A DNA stretch of 64,000 nt from Psammoneis japonica (lineage: Eukaryota): the NCBI GenBank assembly GCA_008632985.1, contig QPGO01000132.1, forward strand, positions 124,001 to 188,000, read 5' to 3'. The notes beneath the pieces were generated by a model. That model saw only the letters and a program-made list of their open reading frames with translations. It did not search any database and had not been told where the DNA came from. Positions 11,023-64,000 of this stretch are shown in pieces; the stretch's first letter is position 1, and every line of letters begins with the position of its first letter. The position numbers and the translations under genes are program-made.

Positions 11023-12599
11023 TCTTATTTTAGTGTAAGTACAGCAGTCCCGCACCATTGGGCATCGGATGCAACAAAACAAAGAAAAGCAAACGAAAGG
11101 CGGGCAATTTTTCACCTGGTGTGGGCAGAGCGTTTTGATTGACTCGACTCGAGCGAAGCGAGACTCGTCGTCAACACGCCAAAGCAACCCGGATGTTAAA
11201 GTGTTGGAAGGAACACAAAACAGCATCAATGACCATGGGCGGAACCGGCAGTGGTGGCAGCAGAAAGGGCTCTGGCAGAAGAGTGGCCCACATCAAAGGA
11301 CAAGGAATTCTATTGGGCCCAAGTGTGATGCCAAAGAAGAGCTGGCATGAAAGCCAAATGCCTGGCTGGCCTTGGCCATTGTGTGGAAGCACACTCCAGA
11401 CAAGAAAGCAAGCATCAGAAAGCAGTCATGGCAGAGCAGCAAGTGGCCAGAGCAAGGGAAAGGCAAGAGGCTTTAGAGCAAGAATTGATTGACAAGCAAA
11501 AAAGAGATGAGGAAAAACAAACTCAGCAGGCCTTGGAAAATCTCAAGGCAGCTGTGCAAAAGAGCATTTGTGTGAGGGGACCAAAAACAGAGGAAGGGCA
11601 CAGTCAGGCAAAACAGGATGTTTCCAGAACAAGCAAGATGCAGAGAGCATTTCCAATCAAGGCAAAAAGCAAAAGCACACTCAAGCTTCAACAGCAGCAG
11701 TCCAAACAGCGGTGCAGTCGCAGCTCCTCGCAGCCAACCCTGCAGCAGAACAGTGGTCACAACAACAGAAGTCCAAATGGCGCCAGCAGCCACAATGATG
11801 GCAGTTGCAACAATCACAGTTTCCACAATGTTGGTTGTCACAGTGGCAGTTGCAATGGCAGTGGCTGCAGCGGCAGCAGTTGCAGTGCAGTCCGAGTGGC
11901 AGCAGCCGCAATGGCGCCAGTGGCAAACGGCAGCAGTCACAACAGCAGCGGTTGAAATTGCAGCAGTCACAACAGCGGCAATTTCAATGGCAGAAGTTGC
12001 AATGGCAGCAGTCAAAATGGCAGTGGTGGTGGCAGTCATGATGCCAAGAGCAGTCAACCCACATGCGCCAGCCAGCTTTTGAGGTCAGCGTGCAGCCCCC
12101 CTGCTGCGGCCGAGATTTTGTGCCCACAGCATTGAAAGACACTCCCTTCCTTGGAAGTGTCAATCAATGTCTCACCAGGGAGCAACCCTTTTTGGCTCCA
12201 CTTGGCTGTCTTGATGTTCAGAGGTGGGGGGGGCCAAGCCACACAAACATCTTTGCAAGAAGAAGTTGCGCCTGGGTGCCGGCCGCTGCAGCCAATGAGC
12301 AACATCCCATGCAGCCACTCAAATGTTCAGAGGCAAAAGCAACCTCATTTGCCAGCTGTTCCCAGACTTTTCCAAAAGTGGCAGATTGCAGATTGACACA
12401 ACGAATGCTCCATGCCCTTGAGTCGCCCCTTGTCTCCCCTCTTGACATGCTCCAGCCTCGCACGAACCAAGGCGTGTGAACAAAAATGACACTTGTGTGA
12501 AAAATCTTCATTGTCTGAACAACAAATTCTGCACTCTTCAATCTGTCAAGAATGAGCAAATTGAAACATCACAGTTTTGTGAAAAGAGCCTGAACATCA

Positions 12600-12925
12600 G
12601 CAAAAAATCTCAGAAGGAATGTTTGTCAATTTTCGGGCTCTTTCTCTCTCACCTCTCTTTTTTCTCATGTGTGCGCACTTTTCTGAGTGCAATGAAGCAT
12701 GTCATGTGTCAGCATTGTTGGTGGGAAAAGTTTGGTGGCAAAGCAACATCAGCTGTTCAAGTTGTGAGATTCCAGATTGTGGATGACAACAAAATCACAG
12801 AAGGAGTTTTCGCTCATTTTTGGACTTTGTCCAACCTGTCTCTTTTCATGGATGTGCTGCTTGTCAGAGCAAAATGTGGCATGCAATGCATTGGCATTGG
12901 AAAAGGTTTGGTGGCACAATCTAGC
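12600..12925. repeat. Degenerate ~190-bp direct duplication (subterminal-repeat-like)
   Basis: aaaatctcagaaggaatg...tctcatg...aaagtttggtggca (~12603-12740) versus aaaatcacagaaggagtt...ttttcatg...aaggtttggtggca (~12791-12916). Confidence 0.5.
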
Positions 12926-13060
12926 ATTGGCTGTTGCTGCCATCATGTGGTCTTTTTCCTGTGTTGTTTTGAGCGAGAGCTTCACGTTCGTTCGTTCTTC
13001 ATTTCACAGGTGCTTCACTCGTCTGGATGTCGTGCATCTGAATTCACTGCACTGACAACA

Positions 13061-13345
13061 ATGACTCTTGTTGAGCAATTGATCGATTGTCGTCATGCAG
13101 CGTGCAATGCATCGCTTCATGCAGCCAACAAACTCCCCTTGTGCAGCTTGTGAAGTCATGACTCTTGTCAAGCAATTGATCGATTGTCATTGTGCAGCGC
13201 ACAATGCATCACTTCACGCAGCTGATGAACTCCCCTCATGCAGCTTTTATAAAGTCACAAGCTGCACAGAGCAGGTTGTTGAATCATTGCGTCACACAGC
13301 CAACAAACTTCCCCCGTGCAGCTTGTAAAGTCACAAGCTGCACAA
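13061..13345. repeat. 97-bp tandem repeat (2 full copies plus a partial third) with reciprocal TG/CA differences
   Basis: atgactcttg...gaagtc at 13061 and 13158; third partial cagccaacaaacttcccccgtgcagcttgtaaagtc at ~13297. Confidence 0.85.
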
Positions 13346-15799
13346 GGGGAACTTGCTTGACGAATGACCGTCTGCTTCAATGGTGTCATTGTGTGGCTTT
13401 CCCCACACTGTTTGACGAGCTGCCGAAAGGCAAGAATGATGATCAAGATCACCATGATGGTGACTGATGACTGATGACTGATGAATGCGATGGGCGATGG
13501 GTGGACGGACCCCATTGACACCAAAAAAATTGACCTGATGCTGAACAAGTCAATTGTGAGATCATGTCTTCCATGCACAAGAATCTGCAGGGTTCTTTTA
13601 AAAGCCAAAGCCAGCTCCTGCTGCTGCCATGGAAAGGCCAAAGAACAAAAATGGCAGCTGCAATCTCTGCTGCCATGACTCAATGCATCTGCACCGCTCC
13701 CACGGAAAAACAACATTTTGTGTGGAAAACCACCAAGGGCAGCTGTTTTCCAGCAACAACCCAGCCAACCAGCATCACCTCAAGCATGAACATGTGTGCA
13801 TCCATGACCTCAAGCTCAAGGATGTCATGCAGGCCCAAGCACATGACTGCTGAAAAGAGTGAAAAAAGCCATTTTTCCAGGAATTGACTGACATTGTCAA
13901 CAAGCAGTGTGGTGCGCGCTTTCTCAAAAAAGAAGTCACTGGCCCCAAGCTGCAGCATGAACTGGACAATGAAGCAGCCCACAAAAAAAAGTGCAGCCAA
14001 GCCTTGCACAAAATCAACACTGCCATGAAGCAAGCATTTTGGAGAAGTGTGCTTGCTGCAGCAAGCAAACACATTCTCTCCAGTTTCTTCATTTGGGGTG
14101 TGGTTTCAGTTTTTGTCCCTGGGGCAATGCAAAAGAATGTTGCTGTTCACAAAACAGCACATGAAAAAAAGTCACGTAAAACAGTGTTGCACACAAAATG
14201 TCCCTTGCATCTGTGTGTGTCCAAATGGTCACCTCAAAAGTGCAGCCTCTTGGGACAAATGTTGGATTGTGTCTGGCCTCCGACACAAGCCATGAGAGGC
14301 AGGCAACATTTGACATCTCCACTCACATCAAATCCACAAGTTTTTGACTTGCAGCTGCAACTTGTCATTTTCCCAGTCTTGCACCATGGCATTTTCTGCT
14401 TTTGTGGCTGGGGCCCTCCTCATGGCGCTGGTGGAGCCCCCATCTTTTTCAGCACAGCACCGGTTCTTGCACTGGCAGCAGCTCCAATCTCCTCAGCAGG
14501 AGGGGCACTGCATGATGGTTGAGTGCTGATGGGTGGTGGCATCAAAACAGCAAACACACCAGTGGGCCCCACTGCAGCTTTTCTGTCATGACAAAGACAG
14601 ATCGGGCCACTCAGCTCTGCCATTGAGCTGTCAATGACCACGGGGATTGTGAGATCACTGGCAAGAATGGCAAGAGGAGCCCATGAGCCAGATCTGCTCC
14701 TTCTCCTTGTCCAACAAATCCTCAAACTCCTCTCAAAATTGACAAAACAGGAACGGTGCTCCCGACTTCTTTGGGGGGGAGAGTCTTCCAAGTGTCTCTG
14801 GCCAAAAGGTGCAGAGTGTGTTTTCTTCAAGGGCAGTTCCGCGTGTGCTGCTCTCCAGGTGAATTTGGACTTCAACGTGTCTCCAATGCAGCTGTTGGAG
14901 ACTGCTGCATGTGTCCACCTTGAAGGCAGCCCTGAGACAAAGGTCAAGTGATGCTTGCTGTGGGGCATGCCAGGATCTTCAGGAGGGCTGTCCTCACCCA
15001 TGACATGCACGGCAGTTGCTGAGTCCTCATCAAAACTCAACTCACAATGGTTGGCATGCCTCCCAGCCAGAGCAGGCATGGGTGGTCATGGTGGACCATG
15101 GCAGCACAGAGGGAAACAAGCAAGGGTGGTGACAGAACATGAAGAACAAGAAAGCTTGAGAATGGTCTTGCCATCACTGTGGTTTGTTGTTTTCTCCTTG
15201 GTCAAATTTGTGATGAGCATGTTCTCTTTGCCTGTGACTGTCACCTGCCTTTGCAGGGATGGCCTCTCTTTGTGCAAAGCTGTGAAAAACTCAACAGGTT
15301 TGAACTTTTTTTTTGTGTCTGAGTGTCCAATCTGACACTCACACTTGTTGTGAAACTCCAAATGTGCTGCACGTGTTTTGTGCAAAGAATGCCAAAAACC
15401 AACTTTATGACATTTGCCCAGACACCAGTGTGGAAAAGAAGGTGATGTCAGGCAAATTGACACTGTGGGACCCAGCCAGCAGTTCATCAGATTTTTTTTT
15501 GGGTGGAGTTGGTGAGGTCTGCACATTGCACAGGCAACTCCTCTCCCATGAACACACCTGCTTGGCAATTGTGCAGACAATGGCCAGGCTTGGCTCCTTT
15601 GGAGTTTGGAGCATGGCACCATGCACCCACCATCTCGCCATCTCAGAGCATCAAGAACACTTTTTTTGTGGTGCATTGCTGACGCAGCACCGTCTGCAGT
15701 CCTTGCAAGTTCAAAGCTTGTGAAAGCTGCCCTCTGCCTCAATTGCAAGTCCCATCCATCAACACTGAGTCTCCTCCTGCAGCATCATTTGATGCAAGA

Positions 15800-16560
15800 A
15801 TGAACAAGAAACTGACTTGGACAATGGCCCAGAAGACTTTGGGAATGATGCTGAAATTAACTCTCTGCTGATGGATGAGCTCAAGACTGGTGCCTTTGGT
15901 GACAAAAGAAATTTGAGATGGAGGAAGCACTCCATGACTTCATCAAAACAAAGCTGGGATTGCTGACTGCCACGTCTTCCTGTTGGGCAGAAATTTGTGC
16001 TTGAGAAGGCCAGCAGATCAGCACAACTGGTTCACATCCAGGACCATTGTTAAATTTGCCTCATGGCATGGAAGATGGGGGGGCACATCACACAGGAACT
16101 TGCAACATCCAGTCAACAACAGATGATCATTGATGCTGCAGCGCAAGTTTCTTCAGCTCTCAACATTGTGTGGGCCAACCAGGATGGCGACTTGGGGCTG
16201 CACAATGATGGTGCAGTTCCCAACATTGTGGTTCAATTCAGTTGGAGAAACAAATGGGGGCATGAAGAGCAAGCCACAAATGTCACGATGAACAATGCTG
16301 CAGAAATCAAACAAGGCCAGCCTGGCCTGACTGCTTGCCTGCATGTTGGTTGTCTCATCAAAGTCCAACTCAAAAGAAATGTGAACATGCTGGTGGCAAA
16401 TGTCTCAAAAGGAAGCAAAAAGACATGGGAGGCCTTGATGTTTGTTGCTTGCTCTCCACAGCATCACAGCTGACAATGCAGTCAATGGAGCCAATTGTGC
16501 CAGCAAGCCCATGTGTGCTCTCCAGGGCTCCAGGTGGTCAAGATCACACAGCAGCATCAA
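15800..16560 (+). pseudogene. Mutated relic of a putative Uma2/PD-(D/E)XK-like endonuclease-fold gene
   Basis: PNIVVQFSWRNKWGHEEQA...VGCLIKV resembles a PDxV(I/V)QFSW..K.YEE.A...GYLIKV motif recalled from diatom proteins; GH and GC sit where GY is expected; frameshifts and stops upstream. Confidence 0.35.
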
Positions 16561-18594
16561 CATTTCCCAACAGATTTGGGGAGCAGCTTTCAGACACCAA
16601 TTTGGTGAATGTTGATGAGATGGATGGTGATGCGGTGTCAACAAAAACATCTTGCCACCTGGAGAGCTGTGCCATCGACCACACCCAGATGTTGGCCAAA
16701 GTGCTTTGCTTGAGGAGAAAGGACAGGGTGGCCTCAACTTTGCCCACTTCCTTTGCTGAGATGTGTGCCACACCAGCTCTGTTTGCTGCACTCTGCTTGT
16801 GATCATTTGCATGAGGCCAGTCTCCAAAAATTGCAAGCTCTGCACTCAACTCTCCACTCACTCCTTGCCAGTGTGTCGTGCAGAGGCATGTGTTGATGAA
16901 AATGTGTCAGGGTGTCATGACATGCCTTCCTTGGCTGAGCTGCAAGACCAAGCAGCAAGCCTTCCAAAGCAAGCAACTGCCACTTCTCAAAGTGCACAGA
17001 GTGGCAAATCCAAGTGCGGGGAGCATTGACAGGCTTTCAAGCATGCGGCACAACAACCGGCCTGGCCTTGCATTTTACACCACTGGTGCTGCTGGCGGTG
17101 CATCTGACATTCCATTTTTCCCACTGCCATGGAATTCCAGGCCAGTGGTGAGTTCAACGTGGCAAGCACCTGTGGAGGCCACTTCTCCTGATGACAGCGC
17201 CTGCTCTCTGACTCTCGTCACATTTTTTTGGTTTGGTCTCCAAGAACCTCCTCATTTTGCTGGCCTGGTCCAGAGATGAGGCAGTCGGCTGGCCTCTTGC
17301 CAAAACAGGAACATGGATCAATGAACTCCATGTGACAACATTGGTGCAAACCAGAGGTGCTGCTTTTTGCAGCAAACGTGTGCTTGGGGCAAGACCTTGG
17401 CCGCCACAGCTCAGCGGCTGCAGTCAAGAAAACGAAACAGTGGAGAAGAGCTTCACCTTGGAAACATCATGATGACACCACTTGTTTTGGCAGAAGTCCA
17501 GCATCCATTGGGCACAGTGGTGCCAGCAGACCAACTCCATCTGGCAGGATGCAAAAAACAAAAAAACGAAAAACTGGATGATGACTCCATGATTGACGAA
17601 AGCGATGGGCGATGGGCGGATGGACCCAATTGACGTTGATGTTGACCCGGAATTCCGCACTCCACATTGCCGTCACTCTCTCTCTAGCTAGAGAACACAT
17701 TGAACATTACGTAGAACTCGATCGTTGCACACCGTAGCATCTATCTACAGTGCGGTAGACTACGGTAGTCGGTGCAACTCATTGCATTTGAACGCAGTGG
17801 GGATATTTATGTTGAGAACCTTGTACAACATGCTCATGGACAAACGCACACAACGACAAACAAAAGTTACGGTGCTGCTGGTCACAGCACAAACAACGCC
17901 GCGGCTTTCATTATATTACCAACGAAACAATTGAAATTGAATGTAAGTTGATCGTAACAGCTATTGCTTGTGACAGGCTATGAATAAACATTATAAATGA
18001 TGCACAAAACTATGATCGATGGATTGTTTGCTGAATAAAATCATCGCCAAGCGCCAAGTTTCGCTTCGTGCCACTTTTCGCCTTTATTAGTAGTTCATAG
18101 CTACCCGCTATTCTTTCGCGTAGAAAATGTACTGAGAATCACGTAAGAGCTGTGCACACGCTGTTCCGTGTGCGACAGCGCGAGACGAGAGGAGCCGCTG
18201 GCGCTGAAATTAAATCATGTTTGCAAGGTTGTGGTCTTGACTCTATATTCATTTGAGGGCATTCTAAACTTATTGTAAATTGCGTTTTGCATTCTGCTGT
18301 CGATCTGTTGGAGAACCATAAAGAATCGTTGATCGTTGCCGTACCGTCTGTAGTGTCCCGCTGTGCTACATAGAGCGACTCCGTGTAATAAGGAGGACCC
18401 TCTAGGTTTGTTGTTCAGGCCTTTGCTAGCGGTAGATCGTTTTAGCTTTGGTTGTCCATTTTTAAGTTTTATTTTTCTCTAAAACTATGATCTATTTACA
18501 GATCGCTTTTGCGTAACATATTAGACTGGGACTCTAACCTTTTCCAATACTATTTTCTCTGATCCCTGCAGGATACATGTAGCGGGAGTTAGGC

Positions 18595-26365: not shown

Positions 26366-26374
26366 GATTGAACA

Positions 26375-27768: not shown

Positions 27769-27899
27769 GGTCAATTAAACGGTGCTTGGTCAGTTCGCGG
27801 CTCTGCTTTGTAGACAGAGAGAACGCTGAAGGCCATTGCCAACTGCCAAAGGCGGTTGGCGACTTAGGGCCCTACATCAACTCGATTATCTTTCAGGGA

Positions 27900-29560
27900 A
27901 TTTCATGGTGGGAGGTGGGAAGGACGGACTCAGAGGAAAAAGGAAATGGCGGGCTGGTGCATGCCATGCAATGATGTGATCGATCTGTGTCTCATTGCCC
28001 ATTGCCTGCGCCTCTTCAATCAACATCTTGGTGGTTCACAAATGATCTGATGCAATTGGTGAAGAGAGTGTGGTCCAGTCTTTCATTGTTTTTGTTTGTT
28101 CATTGTTCAACCCCCCCTTGTTCTGGTTGGTCGTCTCTTCCTCTTGACATGTGCTGACGAAGCTCCAGAGAGGCGAGGCTCAAAGGTGTTTTCATCCATG
28201 AGAGTGGGCAAGTCCTTGCAGACCAGCTGCCTTCCTTTGGAGCTTTGCCATCTTCAAAGCTCACTCTCAAGGCAAACACAGCAAGAGACAGTGTCACATT
28301 GGTTTTGATCTTGTCCTGGTTGTTGAGGCAACCAGAGAGCTGACTTTTTGTTGTCCCTGTCAACACAGCAGCAAACTGAGCAATGCTGCCAACTGATGTG
28401 ACAGCAGCTTCAAGGCAAAATTGGCAAAGCAAACTTTGTGGGATCTCACTGGCTGTCATTTTTGGCTCATCACAAGGCTCCAATTGAGGCAGCCAGAGAG
28501 CAGATGCTTTGTTGTTATCTCCATCAACAGTGGGAGTGTCCTGGCTGGGGCAGCCAGAGAACAGACACTTTGCCATCCCTGCAAATGGTGGTGACCTGAT
28601 CAACATTGATGGCTGACATGACAGCTGGCAGCTTCAAAGCAAAATTAGCAAGACTCAAAAGGTGACATCTGTTGTCTTGTCAACCATGGTTTGTGGCTCC
28701 TCACATCCTTGGGGGGGCGGGATGCAGCCAGAGAAGAACAGACTTTGTCATCCCTGTTGACACCAGCAAATTGAGCAATGTTGTCAACTGGCACAAGCAA
28801 CAGCTTTTGAGTGAAGTTGAAATTTCACAAAACAAAGTTTGTGGGGTCTTGCTGGCTGCAGTTTGTGGCTCATCATGAGGTTGTTCCGGGTGAGACAGCC
28901 AGAGAATGGACACTCTGTTGTCTCCATCAATGGGGGTGGTGTGAAGTGGCAAGCAGCATTGAAAACTGAGGCTGCAGCAGCAGTTCAACCATGAAGAGAT
29001 GGTTTGTGCTTTCACCTGCCAAGCACAAAAGCTGTCTTTCCTCCTCTTGCCTCCTTTGGAAGAATTGACTTGGCCGCCCCCTTCTTTCCAGCAGACATTT
29101 TTGAACCTTGTTTGTGCTTGCTTGCTTTGCTGGCAACAGCAACCATGACAGCAGTGATGAGAGTGACAAAACAGAGAAAGTTGCAAGCTGGCAAGGCTTG
29201 GCCACACATCACAGCTCCCCACAAGAAGCGCCAGAGCCATGGGTGATTTTTCTAAAGTTGAGTCCAGATCCCATGGTCTTGTGGTGTGAGAAGGAAGAAG
29301 GCAAAGTGCAGAGCAGTTTGTTTTCCATGAATGCGGCTTGCATTGTCAACTTTTCTGAGCTCTGCAATCCTTGGTTTTACACCAACAGCAGAGCTCTGAG
29401 AATTGGCCAGAAAGGGTCAATTTTGCTGGGGCAAAAGTTGTTGTGATGAAGGTGATGAAGAGCGCTGCTCAACACCCTTCTGTTGAGGATTCAACGTTGT
29501 TCTCAACTTCTTGCTCCTGAGCTTGATGACTCATTTGACTTGGTCACCATCACTGAACAA
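27900..29560. mobile_element. TpA/CpG-depleted block containing degenerate direct repeats
   Basis: Only residual gttat, attag, tctaa, ttttac seen; repeated cagccagaga...tctccatcaa and ccctgt...gcaaa(c/t)tgagcaatg at ~28330-28640 and ~28725-28935. Confidence 0.6.
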
Positions 29561-29702
29561 GAAGCAAGGTATGATGAGGAGCAAGAGAGGCAGGCGTGCT
29601 GCCCTGAGGTTGTTGTGGTGAAGGTGAAGAAGAGCCCTTCTGTCGAGGATTCAATGTTGTCAACTCCTTGTTCCTGAGCTTGACGACTCATTCGACTTGT
29701 TC
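29448..29702. repeat. Direct repeat (~85-95 bp x2) straddling the block edge
   Basis: gaaggtga..cccttctgt(t/c)gaggattcaa..cctgagcttga(t/c)gactcatt(t/c)gactt at 29448-29545 and 29620-29702. Confidence 0.85.
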
Positions 29703-44852: not shown

Positions 44853-47519
44853 GCTCGAGCCAAACTGGAAACTGGATCCCCTGGTAGAGAGGAAATTTTG
44901 AACTTTGCTCAATCAATGAAATAAACGAGAACAGTGAACAGCACCATCAAGGTTCACGCCACGCTTCACTCCTGGGAGCACTGACATCTTCTGATGACAT
45001 TTTGACATTGGATGTGCGTTACTGCACCATAGCGGGGCGGGGGGGGGCTTGTTTCATGTAATCGTTCCTCGTAGACGACTACTACACGAGTGCCTGCGGG
45101 GTGACTTCTTTTTTCGAAAAGCTGCCCCGACATCCAAAAGCCTGTGGTATGGTTCGGAGTCGCAGAGCAGTCTTTTTGTCGTTTTGTCGATGACAATCGC
45201 TGATCGATTGCCCTCTGTCATTCTCTGACTCTGCTCTTCTCTGGCAGATGATGCTCCTGACCGAGCACTCTGGTTTTGGTTGTGGCGCAAGCCATGAGCA
45301 CCAGACCTTGAGCCAGGGCAGGGCTGGCAATTCCAGGAACCCGGAACTGGAGCTCTTTGCTCTGGAAAGCCGCAAAAGGTGGGTGGCATGGGCTGCAAGC
45401 AAAAAATCACTCTCAACTCATCAACGTGCAGCACACAATGTTGACAAAAGAAAAGAGAAAGGTTGCTGTGGCTCCTCAGGTGCTCACAGTGCAGGTGTGC
45501 AAATCGTCTCCGAAGCAGAGCAATGCAAAGCAGACCCCCACCCACTCACACAGGGGGGAGGCACAGACCACCATCTCCTGTTGGTCTCCGATCTGCACCA
45601 AATTTGTTTCCATCCACAACTCACAGATGAGACTTCTGCACAACCAGAGCATTTCTTGCACCGCCAACCAGTTTGATGGGGAAGGCCCGTCAAACTGCAG
45701 AAGTCACACATGCACGATGAAAAAGGAGCAGCCCCCCCCCTTCCCACCACACGGCTGGGCTGCTTGGAGTGAAAAAGGATTTTCCAAAGTCATGAAATGA
45801 GATGTGGAACAGGTTGGGCCCAGTTGTGTGCCATGATCACCTTGCTGGGGATGCAAGCAAAATCTTCAAAGCCTGCCACAATGTGACTCACCGGCGGAGG
45901 CATGACTTTGACTTGATCAGAAAATTTGTCTGTGATGATCAACTTTGTCATTGTTGATGTGAAGTGTGTTGAAAGCAACTGGAAAGAACCTTTGAAGGCA
46001 ACTGTGTTCATTGTGACCCTCCAATCACTGTTGAAGCTGCTCAAAACTACAGTCTTCATCATGGCAACACCCGGCTTGCCAACCTTCGGAGCACAGGCCA
46101 AATTGTTGACTTTGACTTCATGGGAAATGAAAAGCACCTGCATCATGGTTTGCTGTCAATTCATCAAGATGGCAGATGCCATCAACAGATCAAGAATGCA
46201 ATGTCAAGGAGGGAAAGATGGACAAACTTGGAATTGAAAAACAACACGATTGGCTCTCAATTGCATTTGCAGCGAAGCTCTTAAAAGCAGATGGTCCTGG
46301 ACACAACAAGGAGTGGACTCAAGTGGCATTTTGAATGGAGTCAATGGTGCATCTGTTCACTTAAAAGACAACAACATTGAGCTGCCAGTGGGTGCACCAG
46401 GAGCAACACCTGAGAAGGACAAAAGTGCAAACCATCACTTCACTTGCACAAGACTCAAGGAACAGAAAAGCATTTGTGTGCAGCCTTGAATGTGAGCTCC
46501 CTGTCATTTGGCACCATTGTCTTGGCATGTTAAATGGCCATCTGCCCCCCTCTCCTGCAAGTCCAAATTCCCAGCAAAGACTTGACGACATGGTCAAAAT
46601 GGCGTGAATGAGGTCATTTGTGTTGGTGCCAGCCATTTTTGAGTCTCTTCTGGAGAAAGCCAATGTGCCCCAAAGAGAAGCTCTTGAGTCAAACATCAGT
46701 GACCAGGAGTGCTGTTCTCATGAACAGCTTTTTTGTCAGATGCACCTCCAAGAAGCACCAGCAATCCAATGGTGTGGCAACACTGCACTGGAACATCAAA
46801 GAGTGCAGTGATGTCATCCACAGAAGGAGGCCAGGCAGAATGTCTGTGCAAAGAGTCTCTCCACAATCTGAGAGAGTCTGTGTGTGACAGGAGTCACTGA
46901 GATTTTGTCACCCTGCCATGATCAGAAAGAAAGAAGCTGACCAATCAAAAGGAAATGGGACAAAAAACAGCAAAGGATCAAAACAGTCCCATGCATTGAT
47001 GTGGACAAAGGCCCAGCAGAAGTGTCCCCTCAGATGGTGGTGTGCATCATGGCGGGCATGTGGTGCCCAGCCAAGGTTGAAACAGCATGTCACAAAACAT
47101 CATCACTGCACTTTAATCTCAAGCTCCACTCACACCAAAACAGTCTTTGTTCCTCTCACTCTGCAGTTGACTGAAGCTTGGTGCCACAAGTCTTGTGTGA
47201 GGCTGCTCCCAAGAACAGCACCATGCTGGGGAGCAAGCTGGCTTCTCCACCATCCACTCTACAACAGGTGTGAGAGAGCAACACAACACCCACCTGAATC
47301 TGTCCTGCAATTCATGGAGGCCAGCTGAACTTCTGAAAAACAAGCAAACAGAGTCAGGCTGATTCCCATTTGTTGATCCACCCTGAGTCTGGCAAATGCC
47401 AGGGAGGTGGGCAAACCCCCTCAAACAGATCCACACAAGCTTGCAAACCCTCTCTGGCATGTCCTCATGTTGTGTTGGTGCTGTCAGGACTCCAAAGACA
47501 TCAGAGCATGCTCAGAACC

Positions 47520-49100
47520 TTCACAGCTTCAATGAACAACAAAGATGCACAGGCAAAACAAGCAGCAGGGCTTCAGCAAAGCAATCCCCCATGTGTCTTT
47601 GCAGCTGTCATGTCCCTTTTCATGCTCCCTTGTGTGCCATCTGTTCATGGAGTCCACATCATCTGAATCTGCAACACTCAACTCTGCAGCACAGGCTTTT
47701 GTTGATGCTGCCAACCTCTCCCAGCCACACCCACATTCTTGACTGCCAGCCTGAAGCTTTCTGGGTCTGCTTCCAGTGCTTGTTTCACCAGCAACTTGAG
47801 TTCTAAGTCAACTTCTCCCAACTCCAACACATGGCCCTCTGCATTGCAAAAACCTGGCCCATCAAGCTGCCCAGCTGGAGCTTTGACATCTGTCAAACCA
47901 CTTGGCCATGCTTTGTGGTCTGTCAAGCGATGAGCGCACATCTTTTGCCACTTGCCAGCAACAGCTGGGGGCACAAACTGGGGCCCCTCTGCTGGCTGGA
48001 ACCTGTTGCATCATTCTCAGCCACAACAGCACAGTTGCAGAACCTGATGATTGCTCTGAATCTTAGCTCACTTTGTCAGATCTGTTTTGAGATCAATTTG
48101 CTCAAGTGGAGAGGATTTTTGACTGTGACAGAGCAGAAAGTCAGGCACTGCAGACCACAGTCTGTGAGATTGTTTTGGCAAATCACTGCCAAAAAAGATT
48201 GACAACACTTTGCAGCATTGCCCTGACAGCATCATTTTGATGAGCTGTTCATCTTTCATCTCTGTCAAAGGTCTGTGAGTGACTGTTGCTTTCAAGCTGT
48301 TTGCACAAGAAATGAGATGTGCCAGACAGCACCTTGGCCAGCAAAGCAGTTGGGTGCTTTTGTGACATCTTTTCCACACAACTTGCTGATGATGGTGATT
48401 TGCAATGCTGAAAGAGGTTGTTGGGGGGGGATCTGAGCATTGCAGAAAAGGCAAAAACTCACAGTGAGAAGTGTGTGCCACCATCAATGCACACATCATG
48501 ATGCCCAAGGTCAAATGCCAGCTCTGGAGGTCATGCAGAGCACTTGTCAAGATGCATGCATCAACACACAACCGCGCACTTGTGGCATGCACAAACAATC
48601 TGGTGACTGACCAACATGACATGAAAAAGGCAAAACAACAGATTGAACAATGCAGGCAGCTGTCATGGCTTGTGTGTGGTCACACAAAAAATGTGAGTTG
48701 CCACCCAGAACATTTTTAAGAACTTGGAGATCATGATCATGTGGCAGCAAGTGCCCAACAGCATCAAGTCCCTCTTCAATGGGCACATGCAAAAATCATC
48801 TTGCCATGAAGAGGCTGACAAGAAAATGTGTGCTTGTTGGCCAAGTCATGATCACACTCACCAGCTCCCTCACCAGCACCAATGGAAGCAAACAATCTAG
48901 AGAGATGCAGTCAACTGGAGTTGATGGCACCTCAAAGTTGCTCTCCACATCACATCATGAGCAAAAGATGCACCCCATCTGCCCATCTTCAGAACTTGCT
49001 CAGCACACCTGTGGCAGTTGATGGTTGCTGAGCCCCTGCTTTGAACAATGTCTAATCTGCTGAATTCAGTGCAAAGATGCTGTGCTTGTGAAGGCCAGGG
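47520..49100 (-). mobile_element. Degenerate tyrosine recombinase of a DIRS/Ngaro- or Crypton-like element
   Basis: DGPGFCNAEG..L..QALEADP..ECGCGWERLAASTKA..DDVDSMNRWHTREHEKG matches the recalled YR pattern GPAF.D..G...YG..RS.RRG..T.A...D...NRWR..E..KG; frameshifted. Confidence 0.55.
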
Positions 49101-49800
49101 AGGCAAGTTTTCATTTTCTCAAGTTTTACAAAGATCACCAACGCGGCCAAAAAATGTGATGTCAATCTGTTCTGTCAGGCAGGCAAGCAAAAAATCATCC
49201 ACTTGTCAGAGTGATGGAGTGCCTGCTTGGTGCTCAATTGAATGCACCAGAGCACATGCACTTGCAACAAGCACATTTGTTTCTAAATGGCGGCTTCAAG
49301 TCAGCAAGAGCACCAGAGTTTGTGTGCTTTTCCCACAAGATGTCCAACTCAAGATGGCCCTGGGTGGAGTGCAGCACAGCTTGGGTCAACCTTCTTGCCA
49401 AACTTTCCTTCATGCCATGACACACAAGCCAAGTCAGCCAAAACAAAAACAGGCTTGGACAGTTCTCTGGAAGATTGTGCATGTGGATCATTGGCATTGC
49501 TGGCACACAGAACAAACAACACAACATCCTTGCACCAAGAGCAACACATGGTTGCTGACTTGATTGATCCATGCACAATGAAGAGCAGGCAGACATGCCC
49601 ACTTGTGGTGCAAAGTGGGTGCAGCTTTCTTGGAGCCATCACCAACACATTGCTGGGGGGGGGCAATGCTGTTCACCTTGTTTCTTCTGAGGGAGCACTG
49701 GTGCTCAGATGTTTGTGTGCACCATGAAGTGCCACTCTGGAGGTTGGGCCTGTGGTTGTGGATTGTCCACTTGTGCCCCATGATGGGTGATGGACCAAGC

Positions 49801-50038
49801 CACCCTGCACAAGAAGTCTGGAATGTTGAACTGCGTAGAAACCGTCGTAGAATCAGCACCAGGGTGGTCAAAAAAGTCTGGAATGTCCGATTTTGACAAA
49901 AAACACACAGAATCTGGTGTAGAGTCAGTGCCAGGAATGTCCAGAAAAACACGAAAAATCCCGCCATTCCAGACTTTGTTGGCTTGTCTGGCACAAATTC
50001 CATGCAGGAATGACATTCCAGACTTTTTGTGTCGGGCA
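49801..50038. mobile_element. ~240-bp MITE with terminal inverted repeats and probable (mutated) TA target-site duplication
   Basis: Left caccctgcacaagaagtctggaatgt versus reverse complement of right tgcccgacacaaaaagtctggaatgt (21/26 identical); internal inverted pair aaagtctggaatg (~49873) / cattccagacttt (49965). Confidence 0.75.
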
Positions 50039-53000
50039 GCAAGCTCATTTGTCACATGTCAAGAAAGGCAGCACAGCACCCTGGCGCTTGCTGCCATTGC
50101 TGCTGAAGGCCACACTTGCAAATTGGGTGGCCCTGTGCTGGCTCCATTGACAAGCACAAAGTGATCTCTCCATCTGATGCTGCTTGCTCCATCAAGCAGT
50201 TTGCAAATGCCAAATTCTAAGTTTCTTTGAGATCCCCCCCTCACACAGTGGCGAAAAAATGCCTGGACTCACAACAGGTTCACCTTGCACTGGAAAAACA
50301 TGGCGCCTCAAACCAGATGCATTGGATGACAAGGAATTTGCACCTGAGCTCCCTCTTTAAGATTTGCAATTGACTGCTGCCTTTGTCTGCCCTGATGAAA
50401 AGCTTTTTCTGAGTCAACAAGAGATTTCTGTGAGCACCAACATGAAGCAAGAACTTCTCAACCTGTTGCCAAGGAAGCAAGAAGCTGAGAGCTTGGTCAT
50501 TCTGCTCATGGAAAACTTTGCAAACTTGCCACTTGGCCCAAGTGGGAGCAAAAAGGGAGTGACAACAGTTTGGTGCTCTTGGCATGCATGACCCACCACA
50601 GCTGTGGCCCAAGCAATGTCAACATGGCAGCAACACAGCCACACAGACAATGTTTGTCAGCTCTGCAGGATCAGATGTGCCACCCTGTTCCACACACTGC
50701 AGATAAAAAGAATTCATTGGGAGCTCATGCAGCAGGAGATTGTTCACACCTTTGTCAAAACAGACATGTGCTGCAATCTTGACCTTGTCTGTCTTGGTGT
50801 CTTGCCAAAGAATTTTTTCATGGCACTTTTAGAAGGAAACCAAGGAGCACACCCTTCTGTGTGTTTGTCCAAAAATTCAATGGCACGCAAAACACACAAG
50901 CTGATGAACCCAAACTGCTTGGTGCCCAAAGGTGCACAATGGCAAGCTGAAGTTTTCAATCTTGCCCACAGCAACAGCACTGGTTTTGGTTTGAGCAGAC
51001 TCTTGGCCCTCACAAATGCACAGCATCTCTCAATCAAAAGATGATGGCAGAAGGCTTGTGGCCAAAATTGAGCCACATTTCAACAATGAGATGTGGCTGT
51101 TCTGTGGGTCCACATCATTGAGCAGGAGTGCTGGTGCCAAATGCTGGACAAATGTCACAGCCAAGTTTCTTGGTGCTGAAAAGGTTGTGGATGTTGGAAC
51201 CCCACACATCTTGCCACCTTCTTGAAAACCCAAAACACACACTTGTTGCAACAAAACTCAGAAAGCTCTTTTTCAAGATTTGGCAAAGCTGAACAGGCTC
51301 CTTTTTGAAAATTGGGCAACACTGACAGAGTGCTGATGGCAAGAGCAACAAGCCAAAGAGCTTCCCACAAATTGGTGACAGTGGATGACACATGTGCCAG
51401 CAAGAAAGAGTGAGAAAAGAAGAAAGTTGAAAGTGAGTTCTTGATGATCTGGCATCAGTCTTGACAAACTTGTTTTTCATCTTGAGCACACCAAGCTGAG
51501 CAAGCGTCAATGACAGGGGGTTGCCATGAGCAACTTTCAGCCCACCCATCAGGTGCTTGTTTGTGTGGCACAAACAATGCCCCTGGTCATCATTGGCACA
51601 CCACAAAACAGATGCTCTGTCTTAACTTTCAACAGCTGAGAGTGTCTTGAGGATCTCAGCAGCTGCACATGTCCATGTCACAAGCTTCAGAGGACTCAGG
51701 TGAACAATGCAGCAGCAGCAGGTTAAAGCCAGCTAAACAGGGAGTGTCTTGTTCTTGCTGGAGATGGGCACAAAAGGCAGCTCATGTGTGTGCTTCTTCA
51801 AAGCTGGCTGGTGCATGCCAAAAAGATGCTTGGGGCGGGGGAGCACAGCACGCCACACCAGGAGATGTGCAACCCCATTGGGGGTGGCAACAAAGAATGT
51901 GGGAGAGCACTTTGCTGTGACAAAGAACACACCATGAGTGGCAGTTGCTGCTTGATTGGAAGCAGAGCATGTGCACCACTCCCTGAGTCAGATGTCTGGC
52001 ATGTGGGAAAAATCTGCACAGCACTGTTGTTTCCCACAAACTTGCAAAAGAAGGAAACTTCTTGACCGCACCCAGACTGACTGGACACTTCCTCTCTTTT
52101 CTCCACCTCTTCTTGAGAAGCAGTGTGCGCAGATTGATTGGCTGGGCCTGAAGAACCTGAAGTGGAAATGACAGGGCTGTTCCATGAGTGCTCCAACCAA
52201 CCAGCTTTCAGTGCTTCTTCTTTGCTGGTGACGCAGGAGGGTCAACATGCCACATGACAAAAAGATTTTTGAGTGAGCTCTGACACACCAGGTGGAAGAC
52301 CAGCAGACACCACCCCAGAAAGACTGAGTGTGGCTGCTGGGTGGACAACCCATGGAACTGTGGTTGCTGGCTTGCACATGCAACAAAGCGCACACCCAAA
52401 ATGAACATGCCAGGAAAAGCGAAAAAGTTTGACATTTTAAGCAACACCCTGTGTCTTGCAAAGGTGCAGGTTTCTCGCCCACAATCAAACAACACCTTTT
52501 GTGAATGAAAGGCATCTGTGTGCATGCTGGCACCATGGCATGGACACATGTGCAAGTGTGCACATGTGTGCTGGCCAGCCGCTGTTTTGAGCAATGAGTT
52601 CACACCTGCTGTGCCACCAACAGAGGAGCTCTGGGGAAACCAAAGCAATGCTCTTGCTGTGCTGCAGAAGCTGCATCAACTGCTGTGCTGCACACAGTTG
52701 CTCTCTTTGTCCATTTCTTCTCAGCTGTCTTGGTCGAACAACCTCCTGCTCGCTCCACGAGAGAGAGCTGTTGCAAGATCAACTTGCTGCTCATTGTTGG
52801 AAGCCTCCTCTGGAGTCTGGAGTCAAGTGGGGATCAATTTTTTTGACAAGCACCTTGTTGTGCGATCCGCTTCGAAATCAGATCTGGTGTGGTCTCTGCA
52901 TTGCACCGCGCTTGCTTGGCCCTTTGGTTGCTAACTCCCGGGTGCATGTTGCGTGCCTCTCTCTCCTCATCTCCGTCCGTCCGGTGCCTCATTTTCTATC

Positions 53001-59478: not shown

Positions 59479-60861
59479 ATGATGAAGGTTGCTCTGGCTT
59501 CCATCTTGAGTATCTTATGCGTCGTCTCCGTTGACGGCCAAGATGTCTCCAAGGACGAAGTGGGGATGCACGATGACGGCGACAGGAACTTGAGCATCCC
59601 ATTGGGTGCTTGCTGCAATCCTGACGATGATCCTGGCTATCGAGTATGCAAAGACCACGTTGCACAGGAACATTGCACTTATGGATACTGGTTGGGACCG
59701 CACACCACGTGCTACAAAGACTGCCCCATACATTATTCTGCAAAGAAACCTCCAACACCAGCTGCCACGCCGCATCCGAAACCGGCACATGGCGCATGCT
59801 GTCTGGACGGATCGTCAAAGTGCCGAATCCTCTCCTACGAAACCTGCAAAGTTTTCAACAATGGTAAATTCTTCGGTTCTGGTGTTCCATGCGACTACAT
59901 CCATTGCCCCGCTGTGATGAAGCCTCCCACTCCCACCATTGCTCCTGGAGGTCGTGGTGCGTGTTGCTTTGAGAAAGGGTTTCGAAGATGCTTGATTTCC
60001 AGGCCGGGAAACTGCAGGAAAAAAGGAGGCAAGTTCTTAGGAAAGGGCACCGTCTGCAAAGAGCCTGGCGGTTTCTGCCCTCATGACTTTTCGACACCAG
60101 CTCCAACTCCCAAGCCTTACATTCCTCCGACAGGCGCTTGCTGCTTCAAGAACCACAAGTGCCACTTGCTCAGCGCAGGGGCTTGCCGCTACAAGGGCGG
60201 CAAATTCTTGGGAAAACACGTCAAGTGCGGCCCATACAAGACCTGCCCCTATGCCAAGCGTACGCCGAAGCCAACGCCTTACCCTACCCCAAAGCCGACG
60301 CCATACCCTACGCCGAAGCCCACGCCTTACCCTACCCCAAAGCCGACGCCTTACCCTACGCCGAAGCCTTATCGTTACCCTTACCCTACGCCGAAGCCTA
60401 CTCCGTATCCTTACCCAACGCCAAAGCCCACTCCTTACCCCGCTCGAACAAAGTATCCGGTGGCAACGCAGGGTGCATGTTGCTTCTACGGTGTTGGAAG
60501 CAGTGTTGGAAAATGTTATGTGCTCAGTAAGAAGCAGTGTGCTGACAAGAGAGGCAAGTTTGCGGGAGGAGGCACAGTGTGCAACAGCAAGACGTGTCCC
60601 TCCGCATATGGTGCGTGCTGCTTGGCTGACGATACCTGCGTTGAGGTGGAACCCAAGATCTGTTCTTCAAAGGGAGGAAACTCTGCCGGATCGGGTACGG
60701 TATGCAAGAAGCACACTTGTCCCATTGTCGAGCGCGGTGCCTGTTGCCGGAAGAACGGAGACTGCCAGATACTCATGAAGGAAGTCTGTTGGAAGAAGGG
60801 CGGCAAATTCAAGGGCTCTGGAAGCACTTGTAAGAAGAATATGTGCCCCAAGGTGATTTAG
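59479..60861 (+). CDS. Secreted Cys/Lys-rich protein with seven GACC repeats and a PTPYPTPK linker (cell wall/adhesive candidate)
   Basis: Signal peptide, acidic propeptide ending in RNL, 7x GACC..C..C..G.(F/W).G..C..CP-type modules, intronless. Confidence 0.85.
60262..60440 (+). repeat. 24-bp coding tandem repeat (PTPKPTPY)
   Basis: ccgaagccaacgccttaccctacc-type units, ~7 copies with synonymous variation. Confidence 0.9.
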
Positions 60862-61538: not shown

Positions 61539-62006
61539 TCATAAGACACTGGAAACATCTTCTGCATCGTTACTGCACGTTAAATCTGGGACCATGACAT
61601 GCATCAGTTTGGCCACGTATGGGGTCGCACAAAAGGTCTCCTCCAAATCCCGAACAGACGTGCAAAAAGCACAACGCTCGCCCGTGGATATTTTTGTATG
61701 AATGCAATTTTTATACTCGGGCTCGTGAAGGCACTTGCTGAAATCCGATTCATGTCTTAGAATCTCCTCGTCTGACTTGCACTGCCGTTGTGGGGAAGAA
61801 ACGAGTCCTTGAGGCACACAGAGCGCGTTGCACCAGCTGCATCCGTGGGCTTGATGACACGCGTCCGCGTCGGTATGAGCAAGGCATTGTTTGAGGTGAT
61901 TTTCGTCCGTGTCGTTTCCGCGCAAGGTTGCCTGTGCAACACTGGCTTCATGCAAGAATGCAATCCAAGTGCAGATGTGAAAGAACAGTAGCGGCGACTT
62001 CATCAT
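61539..62006 (-). CDS. Small secreted Cys-rich protein (PSI-like C..C.WC repeats)
   Basis: Signal peptide followed by TLRG; CL..D..AC..GCSWC..LCVP and CL..NC..CAFC..FC. Confidence 0.65.
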   Translation of the reverse strand: MMKSPLLFFHICTWIAFLHEASVAQATLRGNDTDENHLKQCLAHTDADACHQAHGCSWCNALCVPQGLVSSPQRQCKSDEEILRHESDFSKCLHEPEYKNCIHTKISTGERCAFCTSVRDLEETFCATPYVAKLMHVMVPDLTCSNDAEDVSSVL

Positions 62007-62445
62007 GGTGTCTCTAGCTGTATTATGCCTTGCGCGCAGGTGCCCCCGCGCGGACACACAAGAATTTTTTCGACTCCCTCCGACACGCGCTCGCTAAAAA
62101 AAAAACCGAAAAACGACTCCGGATGGCATCTTGTCGTTGATTGTAAGTAATTGGACGATTATCGTGATAGTTTGACCAGGCGGAAACGCTACACTAGTCC
62201 CTAAGATTATATCACTTGAAGGTCTTGTGAAGATTTGAAGAGACACTCGAGAAATCTACCAGGATTTGTTGTGCTTGGATGTCACCGAAATGCTGCACTT
62301 TTCTGCGCAATTCATTCTTTGTCGAATCTCCATCTTCCTCCCTTGCAGTCGCACCCATCTATTCTGATGATTCAGCATTACACGGGACATTGTGTGGCTT
62401 GAGTAGGCTGTAAGTAGACGAGACATTGTGTCATGAAAAAACAAA

Positions 62446-63567
62446 ATGGCCAACAACATCGATTGCGCCGCTGCAGCCCAGTGCGGACTTGCTGTCAATG
62501 ACGATGGCGGAACGCATGAACGTGGGAGGGCATGTGGTGTGGAGAAGAAGATCGAAGTTCAGAGGGTCTGTCAATCGCTACAAGACATGTCAGAGAGTGG
62601 CAGGCCAAATCTAACAGAAGTCGCTCGGGTTTGCAGGGTTGACCGCAAATTTGCAGTCAAAGTGGAACGAGAACTTGACTGTTGCGGCCAAGTGCTTCAC
62701 CCGCGAAAGATTCACCAGAAACGAATGTGTGGTCCAGGCGTCAACACAATTGACAGTCTAGATGCTTTTGTCCTTCTGACTCCACATCTGGACGAGCCAA
62801 GTCACTCGCTGTCTGGCTGTTGGGAGAATCTGTGCAACCTCACAGGAGCAGTGGTTTCGAACGCTGCCATCAGCAGATTCTGGAATTGTGCATTTACAAC
62901 AAGCGGGAAACTTTGCAAGCCAAATCTTGTTCCCTGTGATAAATTCAAACCCGACAACATCCTACGAGCATGCGAGTTCATGATGGTTGTCGCTGAGGTT
63001 GATCCACGGAGGGTCAAATGCGGAGATGAGAAGCTGCTGAAAGGTTCAGAAGTGTGTTGCTGAAGGACAAGGCGAAATGTGCTAATGGGGGAAGTCCCAC
63101 CATCCTTCACATCCTCTGATTTTCGCAACACATGCCCCATCATCGGCTTTTGCGGCATCGACACAAGGACCCACCCTGTGCGTTGCCAGATCCATGACGA
63201 GCCGAATGATGCGGAACAGTTTGCAATGGAGATTGAGCATGCAGTGCATCGGGGCTTTCTCAGAGGTGGTGACATCCTTGTTCTGGACAATGCAGCCTGC
63301 CACGTGCGTGGTGAAAATGCGGTTCTTGAAGAATGGCTGTGGACGGAGCATGGCACATTTGTTTTGTTTCTTCCAACGAGGACCCCTGAATGGAACCCTG
63401 CAGAACTTGTGTGGCGTCAACTTGTGACACAGCTCAAGCACCATCCGATCTGCAGGCTCCGCTCGCACACCGAGCATTCCACCGCCTGTGCTGCCCATGA
63501 CGTGTCATCCCAAATTGCGCATGACCAAGTCTTCTGCATGTGCAGAGCATGTGGACATGTGTCTTAA
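62446..63567 (+). pseudogene. IS630/Tc1-mariner superfamily DDE transposase (D-D38-E spacing), hypermutated, with in-frame TGA at 63061-63063
   Basis: HTH (LTEVARVCRVDRKF), GDEK, LVLDNAACH, FLPTRTPEWNPAELVW; the two ORFs are in the same frame; no Tyr in the whole protein. Confidence 0.88.
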
Positions 63568-64000
63568 GCTTGTTCTACAATAGAATGCTCCACTGTAGAA
63601 TGCCCTGCAACAGATTGAGGTGCAATTGAAACTTCCAGGCCCCAGGATTCAGCCCCCGAACACCCGGGTTTCAAGCCCACTCCAATGACGACAACAAAAT
63701 GCCAGCGCAACTCCAGCTGTTGGACATGTTGTTTGAAGGGCAAACAGTCATTGACATCCTGACTAAAACCTCTGAGCAATGATCAATGGTCATGGCGAGT
63801 CAGAATTACAGCTGTGTTCCGCCTCAAGCTTCCGCGTGCAACAGGGGGGGTCAAAATTGCCCATTTGTCACAGCACGTGGAATCTACGTAGATTCTGGTG
63901 TTGACCTTGCTGCAGGCACAGTCAGCAAATGACCCGACAATCACAGCACGCAGGGCCTACGTAGGTCATGGCATTGAACTTACCGTTAAGTCTTGTCAGT

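Follow-up and report, generated by a model that had tools for sequence, protein, structure and literature searches.

Mutators that act on selected DNA were known only as cytosine-directed systems, namely repeat-induced point mutation (RIP), APOBEC-type editing and CpG decay, before a 2026 preprint on the rhizarian chlorarachniophyte Bigelowiella natans. The main text of the preprint reports that 231 of 302 new single-nucleotide mutations in B. natans mutation-accumulation lines were located in two integrated viral regions (Mettrop et al., bioRxiv 10.64898/2026.01.13.699255), a silent single-copy 186-kb insert of a nucleocytoplasmic large DNA virus (NCLDV) and a 25-kb virophage insert. The rate given there was ~6e-7 per site per generation in these regions compared to 3.5e-10 elsewhere, and 230 of the 231 mutations were A>G or T>C and were reported at TpA. 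The same text describes 124 clusters of TpA-poor, CpA+TpG-rich windows in the B. natans genome and an enrichment of DDE-endonuclease and reverse transcriptase domains among low-TpA genes, and its authors propose an ADAT2-like DNA adenine deamination as a defence against foreign DNA (bioRxiv 10.64898/2026.01.13.699255). Here, a stretch of 64,000 nt from the diatom Psammoneis japonica (assembly GCA_008632985.1, contig QPGO01000132.1, positions 124,001-188,000 of the forward strand) was analysed; this stretch is called the window and all coordinates below are positions in it. The window contains five blocks that are poor in TA and rich in TG and CA, one of which carries a Tc1-like transposase. 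A local mutation of TpA to TpG or CpA, acting at the level of DNA, has probably hit non-genic DNA in this window, namely one Tc1-like transposon and four degraded or non-coding stretches.

TA-poor blocks and the transposase of block 5

Dinucleotide observed/expected (o/e) ratios in sliding windows of 500 bp showed a TA o/e of 0.00-0.12 (0-4 TA per 500-bp window) over ~11251-17250, 28001-29500 and 45251-52750. These three long stretches had a CG o/e of 0.00-0.59, TG and CA o/e of 1.6-2.1 and a steady G+C of ~0.49, while a weaker TA depletion was found in the 500-bp windows at ~8751-9500 and ~62501-63750. The blocks as delimited in the original prediction, pooled to 18,480 bp, contained 73 TA (o/e 0.06), 268 CG (0.24), 2105 CA (1.72) and 1970 TG (1.81), compared to 1741 TA (0.57), 2685 CG (1.02), 3222 CA (1.11) and 3125 TG (1.13) in the remaining 45,520 bp of the window. 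A two-state hidden Markov model (HMM) run on the series of pyrimidine-purine (YpR) steps alone returned exactly five blocks (Table 1). The five sharp, TA-poor and TG/CA-rich blocks of the original prediction were thereby recovered at nearby coordinates, with blocks 1 and 5 being shorter, and block edges were resolved to about 50-100 bp. Against the background o/e of 0.57, the Poisson probability of the TA deficit was 8e-83 for block 2, 3e-22 for block 3 and 4e-91 for block 4, and 8e-6 and 1e-9 for blocks 1 and 5. The genes in the window were already at a TA o/e of ~0.5. Overall, the TA-poor blocks are a real, non-random feature of the window.

The frame at the core of block 5 matched the DDE_3 domain PF13358 with an E-value of 1.7e-12 and 47.9 bits against a cut-off of 28.6. 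A total of 92 homologues of this transposase carry PF13358 (best E-value 1.9e-142), and the named ones came from Thalassiosira, Cyclotella and Skeletonema. The frame has no frameshift and a single in-frame stop, a TGA at a codon where 74% of the relatives have Arg, which is consistent with a CGA>TGA change. Compared to 42 full-length relatives, the block 5 protein had 0% Tyr against 4.0%, 7.0% Cys against 1.7% and 4.8% His against 2.7%. The nine conserved Tyr columns read Cys in six cases, His in two and Phe in one, with no Tyr retained. The predicted loss of tyrosine was thus found throughout, every Tyr codon of the transposase being gone. In addition, the protein deviated at 29 of the 157 columns conserved in the 42 relatives. 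Approximately 11 of these deviations fit a change of TA to TG or CA (Y>C four times, Y>H as CAT, L>P as CCA, L>S as TCA, I>T as ACA twice, V>A as GCA and I>A as GCA) and four fit a change of CG to TG or CA (R>H as CAC, R>stop as TGA, R>Q as CAG and T>M as ATG). The TA density of the block 5 open reading frame (ORF) was 6.2/kb, compared to 23.0-70.5/kb (mean 47.9) in 30 full-length relative ORFs, and its TG+CA density was 199/kb compared to 149/kb in the relatives, an excess that matches the TA deficit. The metagenome loci that encode relatives had a TA o/e of 0.46-0.86 in 64/64 cases. These changes have inactivated the transposase. Terminal inverted repeats were not found when 62150-62450 was compared to the reverse complement of 63560-64000, as a transition-tolerant local alignment scored 30 where shuffles had a mean of 34 and a maximum of 44; the right end of the transposon may fall beyond the window.

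A search among the 227 family proteins of at least 120 aa in public data showed six with less than 1% Tyr and raised Cys+His. At the conserved Tyr columns, these six read C four times, H three times, Y twice and another residue seven times, compared to Y 11 times and H twice in six controls. One of the six (P0075) differed from a close normal relative (L048) by four Y>C changes and one Y>H change. These numbers are small and hint at hypermutated copies of the transposase family beyond this window. The HMM also marked five segments of 258-579 bp in the 64 metagenome loci. These were not counted as alike, as four of them were strongly skewed towards TG over CA and had a simple TG-rich look.

The composition of the blocks as a whole could be accounted for by transitions. 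YpR steps made up 23.9% of the blocks (4416/18475) and 23.7% of the remainder (10773/45515), and the gain of TG and CA in the blocks (42.9/kb) equalled the loss of TA and CG (42.4/kb), so that transitions at TA and CG alone suffice to explain the block composition. Two duplicated sequences showed that the change occurred in place. The tandem copies of block 2 (13061-13149 and 13158-13246, 89 nt) had a nucleotide identity of 83% and were 100% identical in the purine/pyrimidine (R/Y) alphabet. All 15 differing bases lay at YpR steps and formed six TG<->CA doubles of neighbouring bases plus three singles of the type CG<->CA/TG. Each such double means that an ancestral TA or CG changed on one strand in the first copy and on the other strand in the second. 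The second case was a short piece just outside block 2, at 10962-11019, where the adjoining S1-domain gene on the minus strand has its start codon and encodes its signal peptide. At positions where the in-block duplicate of this piece reads TG, the piece itself has kept TA or CG. Internal repeats of block 3 likewise had 54-76% nucleotide identity and 91-94% identity in the R/Y alphabet, and 29437-29545 in block 3 was similar to 29609-29702 outside, with CG outside corresponding to TG inside. The R/Y alphabet therefore recovers block repeats that nucleotide identity understates. Overall, the TA-poor state is derived by mutation and not a native composition, as the original prediction had held and as the Cys and His at conserved Tyr columns and the TA-rich relatives bear out.

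The loss of TA was separable from the loss of CG. CG loss was uneven among the blocks, with a CG o/e of 0.13-0.24 across blocks 2-4. The CG density of the block 5 ORF was undepleted (47.1/kb compared to a family mean of 43.6/kb) while ~87% of its TA had been lost, which shows that TpA loss is independent of CpG loss and agrees with the claim of a separate A>G/T>C process at TpA, apart from CpG decay. At three edges (11051-11190, 17597-17671 and 52863-52909), the TA-free zone reached ~70-150 bp past the CG-poor zone. In the block 5 copy, TpA loss came earlier and faster than CpG loss. For blocks 2-4, CG retention ranged from 0.07 (TCGA) to 0.47 (GCGC) by context, and the loss fits the decay of CpG that was presumably methylated.

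The bases flanking TA influenced its retention, which was taken as the number in blocks 2-4 relative to the remainder of the window. RTAY was retained at 0.005 (1 in the blocks compared to 521 in the rest), the mixed contexts RTAR and YTAY at 0.051 (16 compared to 889), YTAR at 0.222 (24 compared to 305) and TTAA at 0.54 (12 compared to 63), and this dependence on the flanks was significant (chi-square p = 5e-11). Blocks 1 and 5 retained 15 TAs, and no RTAY was among them. As each TA has two adenines, one per strand, these retention figures correspond to a ~4-8 times higher rate for an A before a pyrimidine. The products pointed in the same direction, with an increase of 15.7/kb for YTGY and 8.1/kb for RTGR where symmetric decay predicts 11.2 each, and imply a preference for TAY over TAR of about 6:1 if CpG decay is symmetric. 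In addition, Tyr codons (TAY) had changed to Cys, a sense-strand A>G change, three times as often as to His (6 compared to 2). The dinucleotides AA, AT and TT were undepleted in the blocks (AA o/e of 1.24 compared to 1.18 outside), so that a 5' T is strictly required. Overall, the signature reads as A>G at 5'-TAY-3', ~6-fold over TAR and on both strands. The error-prone repair by Pol eta with its WA>WG preference, offered in the original prediction as one candidate, is not compatible with the AA ratios. TG and CA followed each other at random along the blocks (runs z -0.28, -2.15 and -1.29), which indicates that there were no long single-strand tracts such as a single processive event would leave; the changes came either from many small events or from hits at individual sites.

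Read evidence was available from three runs of one sample and study. Contigs of the DNA run were identical to the window over 45560-49828, and over 50011-51406 they matched every letter apart from one gap. The depth of 31-mers in block 4 was 68, compared to 59-61 in the flanking genes, and in the single-copy parts every site carried one pair of letters, either TG or CA, without a reported mixture. As exact 31-mers at a depth of ~60-68 require accurate reads, and such reads report modified bases as their parent bases, a long-read base-calling artefact is unlikely. In summary, the reads gave the same letters, the intact relatives were TA-normal and copies differed by YpR transitions, as expected from the original prediction.

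Content and surroundings of the blocks

The five blocks are situated between genes. ORFs outside the blocks carried kinesin, PDZ, S1, TIM21, metaxin-like GST, C2H2 finger, AAA_16 and SNF2+RING domains, and the domain-bearing ORFs at the block flanks had a normal TA content according to the Pfam matches and sliding windows. Inside the blocks, the Pfam scan covered 150 of the 151 stop-free ORFs of at least 70 aa (63567-63782 on the minus strand was left out). The DDE_3 match in block 5 was the sole match related to transposable elements among the 150 ORFs, and blocks 1-4 had no Pfam match, including the ORFs of at least 70 aa in block 1. Six further weak matches in block ORFs were all below the Pfam cut-offs and were taken as chance. 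The original prediction, in which identifiable block content consisted of transposon relics or repeats, was thus correct in part: it applied to the transposase of block 5, to the internal tandem or dispersed repeats of blocks 2 and 3 and to three multi-copy pieces of block 4, and blocks 2-4 were otherwise without a Pfam match and had little coding periodicity. The coordinates of these features are given in Table 1.

Table 1. Positions of the TA-poor blocks and of features within them.
Feature	Position	Strand	Description
Block 1	8765..9378		Intergenic, weak to moderate TA depletion, CG reduced; 63 CA, 52 TG, 18 CG, 3 TA (HMM block)
Block 2	11202..17594		6.4 kb; 679 TG, 761 CA, 90 CG, 12 TA (HMM block)
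Tandem repeat in block 2	13061..13246	+	Two copies of a 97-nt unit; third partial copy at ~13285-13333
Decayed duplicate in block 2	17421..17482	+	Copy of 10962-11019, which is outside the block; 79% identity over 62 nt
Block 3	27894..29681		1.8 kb, depleted in TA and CG, internal units of ~60 nt; 172 CA, 204 TG, 16 CG, 5 TA
Block 4	45209..52861		7.7 kb between two expressed genes; 837 TG, 916 CA, 52 CG, 24 TA
Short multi-copy pieces in block 4	45200..45600, ~49850-50010, ~51360-51400		Summed word depth 581, 460 and 384, compared to ~60-68
Block 5 (HMM)	62726..63793		115 TG, 105 CA, 39 CG, 10 TA; TA thinning from ~62400
Block 5 core	62437..63561	+	Tc1-like DDE_3 transposase frame, 375 codons, 0 Tyr
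In-frame TGA in block 5	63061..63063	+	Codon 209 counted from 62437; Arg in 74% of relatives

The leftover TAs of block 1 were TTAA, CTAC and TTAA. Between the multi-copy pieces of block 4 and their counterparts elsewhere in the genome, 74 transitions and 25 transversions were counted, and neighbouring CA>TG doubles recurred at 45245/6, 45314/5, 49992/3, 51366/7 and 51391/2. Coding periodicity was weak in blocks 2-4, where purine 3-periodicity was at noise level except in the low-complexity part at 11401-12300. Within it, 11749-12054 was the only part of blocks 2-4 that looked codon-phased; it was trinucleotide-like and of low complexity, Ala/Thr/Val- or Gln/Ser-rich, with a purine 3-periodicity chi-square of 27-41. 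Nine ORFs of at least 200 aa were found in blocks 2-4 where ~5 were estimated by chance, so that long ancestral ORFs were not indicated. The data lend no support to a recent viral insert with dense coding as the origin of blocks 2-4, given the weak coding periodicity and the ORF lengths near chance.

No large between-block repeats or gene duplicates were found in the window by nucleotide self-BLAST, an R/Y repeat search and tblastn of 183 outside ORFs; the self-searches gave only short internal repeats and two short edge duplicates. The latter stood at the inner right edge of blocks 2 and 3, each being a short decayed copy of sequence just outside the block, and may be the footprint of an insertion or duplication of the block DNA.

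The RNA-like run of the same sample produced contigs on 44000-44909 and 53089-55999 and none on 45200-52800, a distribution that has no bearing on expression. One contig skipped the GT..AG introns 55198-55289 (92 nt) and 55570-55667 (98 nt), which were located just upstream of and at the start of the SNF2+RING ORF. Letters of the full-depth DNA contigs differed from the window at 53849 (C>T), 53997 (G>A) and 54732 (T>G), and at 54732 the RNA-like run sided with the DNA reads; these letters are either assembly errors or strain differences. Further along the window, the ORF at 58263-59069 strongly matched DUF6940 (E-value 2.9e-53), a family of unknown function. Finally, a tandem array with a 12/24-nt period at 60237-60458, in the ORF at 59374-60861, encoded a Pro/Tyr/Ala/Lys-rich repeat with a local TA o/e of ~1.07 and had a weak Trypan_PARP-like Pfam match below the cut-off.

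Target choice, rival explanations and proposed mechanism

The process was local and not general to unconstrained DNA, as other non-genic stretches had a TA o/e of 0.85-1.27, with ~0.85-1.27 at 31251-32500 and 1.07-1.18 at 37251-38000. It is confined to sharply bounded non-genic DNA, the transposon included. The original prediction had called the process repeat-targeted, which the window did not support. Most of block 4 was single copy, with no second contig of at least 80% similarity on 45600-49600 in the DNA run, and a pair of ~190-bp copies at 31392-31826 was unmutated with 98.5% identity in TA-rich intergenic DNA (o/e ~1.0-1.27). The ~190-bp copies are followed by a 58-nt imperfect inverted repeat with 74% complementarity, and this region (31392-31826 and 32007-32141) may be a young, small mobile element that escaped the erasure of TA.

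Three explanations question whether a local mutational process acted here at all. Heavy modification of the DNA, with 5-methylcytosine (5mC) in CpG and an altered T or A in TpA, could have led the base-caller of a long-read platform to write TG or CA, which the assembly then kept. In favour of this, the two palindromic YpR steps, which are well-known places for DNA modification, both show the change, and the matching runs come from one sample and study with the library type off record. However, the 31-mer contigs reproduced the letters of block 4 at a depth of ~60-68 with sites fixed as TG or CA, Tyr-poor and Cys/His-rich copies of the family were found in other public records, and the B. natans preprint reports TpA mutations of the same type called from Illumina data (bioRxiv 10.64898/2026.01.13.699255), so that an artefact is very improbable. 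It is also highly unlikely that a virus or exotic element arrived already near-free of TA and CG. Some viruses do avoid CpG and UpA and blocks 2-4 have no recognisable relatives, but the block 5 family is TA-normal at all 64 metagenome loci and its conserved Tyr positions read Cys or His, the TG<->CA doubles of block 2 imply TA or CG ancestors, the duplicate of the host gene 5' end lost TA and CG only in the in-block copy, and the YpR total and mass balance fit the conversion of ordinary DNA. A genome-wide TpA>TpG/CpA bias, combined with CpG decay in old unconstrained DNA and with selection keeping genes normal, would remove the need for any targeting. Such a bias would agree with the intergenic position of the blocks and with the TA o/e of ~0.5 in the window genes; it is improbable in view of the TA-normal non-genic stretches at 31251-32500 and 37251-38000, the edges sharp to ~50-100 bp, the differences between tandem copies that fell at YpR steps in 15/15 cases, and block 5, where ~87% of TA was lost with CG and an open frame kept, which requires a rate far above that of other changes.

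Two further explanations accept a local process and change its chemistry. ADAR-like A-to-I editing of double-stranded RNA (dsRNA), fixed by reverse transcription and re-insertion, would share the A>G change with a 5' U preference, which is the ADAR pattern as given in the B. natans preprint (bioRxiv 10.64898/2026.01.13.699255). The sole target that can be identified in the window, however, belongs to the cut-and-paste DNA transposons, TG and CA occur in equal measure and interspersed on both strands, AA is undepleted, the 3' preference is for a pyrimidine and not G, and a duplicated host gene fragment was mutated in place; even though edited retroelements are known in animals, this route is scarcely credible here. 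In the other case, a TET/JBP-type dioxygenase would oxidise T at TpA and 5mC at CpG, and the mispairing 5-hydroxymethyl- and 5-formyl-pyrimidines would give T>C and C>T. This would account for the decay of exactly the two self-complementary YpR steps, and it has precedent in that T at TpA is a preferred hydroxylation site in dinoflagellates and in kinetoplastid telomeres and that 5-formyluracil pairs with G. TA and CG losses are nevertheless uncoupled in block 5 and at the block edges, and a literature search on 5-hydroxymethyluracil in diatoms gave only dinoflagellate papers among the results listed, which leaves an oxidised thymine an unlikely source of the changes.

For the reading as local TpA mutation, the following mechanism is proposed. 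Blocks would be marked as silent or foreign chromatin, and A would be changed to G at TpA on either strand, site by site and on both strands. The process would halt within ~100 bp of the neighbouring genes and would have come near saturation in the older blocks, while CpG decay, presumably by deamination of 5-methylcytosine, would additionally strip most CG from blocks 2-4. The likeliest chemistry would be the conversion of adenine to hypoxanthine, which is read as G, by a TadA/ADAT-type deaminase acting on silenced or foreign DNA. The natural substrate of TadA/ADAT has a U before the edited A and, for bacterial TadA, also a C after it. The outcome would be permanent inactivation, with the Tyr codons of the transposase gone and the TA dinucleotides erased, TA being the target dinucleotide of Tc1/mariner elements.

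Several points weigh against this reading. An enzymatic, regulated or adaptive nature of the process is putative. The ancestor of blocks 2-4 was approximated by the mostly genic remainder of the window, which makes the context rates rough, and the asymmetry of the products could partly reflect effects of the flanks on CpG decay. Foreign or transposon DNA is established for block 5 only, as the scanned ORFs of blocks 2-4 had no Pfam match and their coding periodicity was weak. The unmutated ~190-bp duplicate implies that duplication alone is insufficient at that length. Finally, the DNA run is probably from the same sample as the assembly, with its library type off record, and is not a fully independent replicate.

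A wider reading would be that of an old defence across the stramenopile-alveolate-rhizarian (SAR) group, common to diatoms and chlorarachniophytes, in which a DNA adenine deaminase specific for TAY, the context that TadA/ADAT enzymes edit in the anticodon loop, acts on new or silenced DNA, repeated or not, before and independent of cytosine methylation and erases TpA to saturation. This reading is possible and is put forward tentatively, with some doubt. If true, transposases would be killed via all Tyr and many Ile, Leu and Val codons and TA insertion targets would be removed, and eukaryotes would have, next to RIP and APOBEC-type editing, a third major form of genome defence by mutation, which would be the first to target DNA adenine. 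Transformation and gene knockouts are available in diatoms. A CRISPR/Cas9 knockout in Phaeodactylum tricornutum is described in PMC9998398.

Comparison with known systems

The decay of CpG via 5mC resembles what was found in blocks 2-4, where CG had changed to TG or CA, as well as the CG<->CA/TG singles between the tandem copies and the R>H, R>Q, R>stop and T>M changes of block 5. It differs in that it cannot remove TA, and block 5 lost TA without loss of CG. Fungal RIP (Neurospora etc.) is alike in its context-specific transitions at the level of DNA, in the inactivation of mobile DNA and in its sharp, skewed blocks. However, RIP makes TpA from CpA by a C:G change, whereas here A:T was mutated, TpA was destroyed and CpA and TpG were made. 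In addition, no dependence on duplication was seen with block 4 being mostly single copy, the in-block copy alone was mutated in the pair 10962-11019/17421-17482, and there were no strand-coordinated tracts. With a TA o/e of 0.06 and CA and TG o/e of 1.72 and 1.81, the direction is opposite and fungal RIP was excluded. A diatom DNMT4 is described in PMC9998398 as related to the RIP factor RID and of unknown function.

The APOBEC3/AID and ADAR systems of animals share the deaminase-type, context-specific hypermutation of invading nucleic acid. The target of APOBEC and AID is C, whereas it is A here. ADAR acts on dsRNA, tolerates a 5' A and prefers a 3' G; in the window, by comparison, the 5' T was strict, a 3' Y was preferred, the target was a DNA transposon and both strands were affected. 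ADAR-type editing was excluded by the DNA-transposon target, the strand symmetry and the 3' Y preference. Pol eta, known from WA>WG changes in somatic hypermutation, is alike in that A>G at TA falls in the WA motif and unlike in that WA predicts a loss of AA, which was not seen. A near-total conversion of TA would also not be what errors of patch repair are known to give.

No description of a TpA-erasing hypermutation in diatoms was found in the literature outside subscription-only papers. The novelty suggested in the original prediction was overstated, as the same TpA-only hypermutation of integrated foreign DNA is described in B. natans (bioRxiv 10.64898/2026.01.13.699255). Genome defences in which a mutator erases one dinucleotide from chosen DNA are rare. 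In annotation, repeat finders that rely on homology miss such blocks, as their proteins lose all Tyr and gain Cys and His and their copies diverge by TG<->CA doubles.

As far as the main text of the preprint describes it, the B. natans system shares with the diatom blocks the A>G/T>C change at TpA only, giving TpG and CpA. Both are sharply local with host genes spared, the targets being non-host or silenced DNA in B. natans and, in block 5 at least, a transposon here; both can have a single-copy target, and both leave a long-term TpA-poor, CpA+TpG-rich footprint with DDE elements among the target types. The two differ in that B. natans is a rhizarian and P. japonica a stramenopile diatom, and new mutations were observed in the former whereas the latter has the footprint alone. 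The hypermutable NCLDV region of B. natans has a Rho of 0.45, compared to a TA o/e of 0.03-0.06 and near saturation here (0.03 for TA and 0.24 for CG in block 2). The target there is viral, whereas the identifiable target here is a Tc1-like transposon, and CpG was also lost in the diatom blocks. The TAY preference was measured here, and the words "trinucleotide", "CpG" and "diatom" do not occur in the main text of the preprint. The diatom blocks most likely record a process of one kind with the TpA-only hypermutation of integrated viral DNA in B. natans, carried much further. New in the present case are the second lineage, the transposon target, the TAY context, the absence of strand tracts and a TA loss separable from that of CpG. 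The footprint is now known from a second, ecologically dominant lineage and not from a single species, which points to an old origin or to recurrence within the SAR group.

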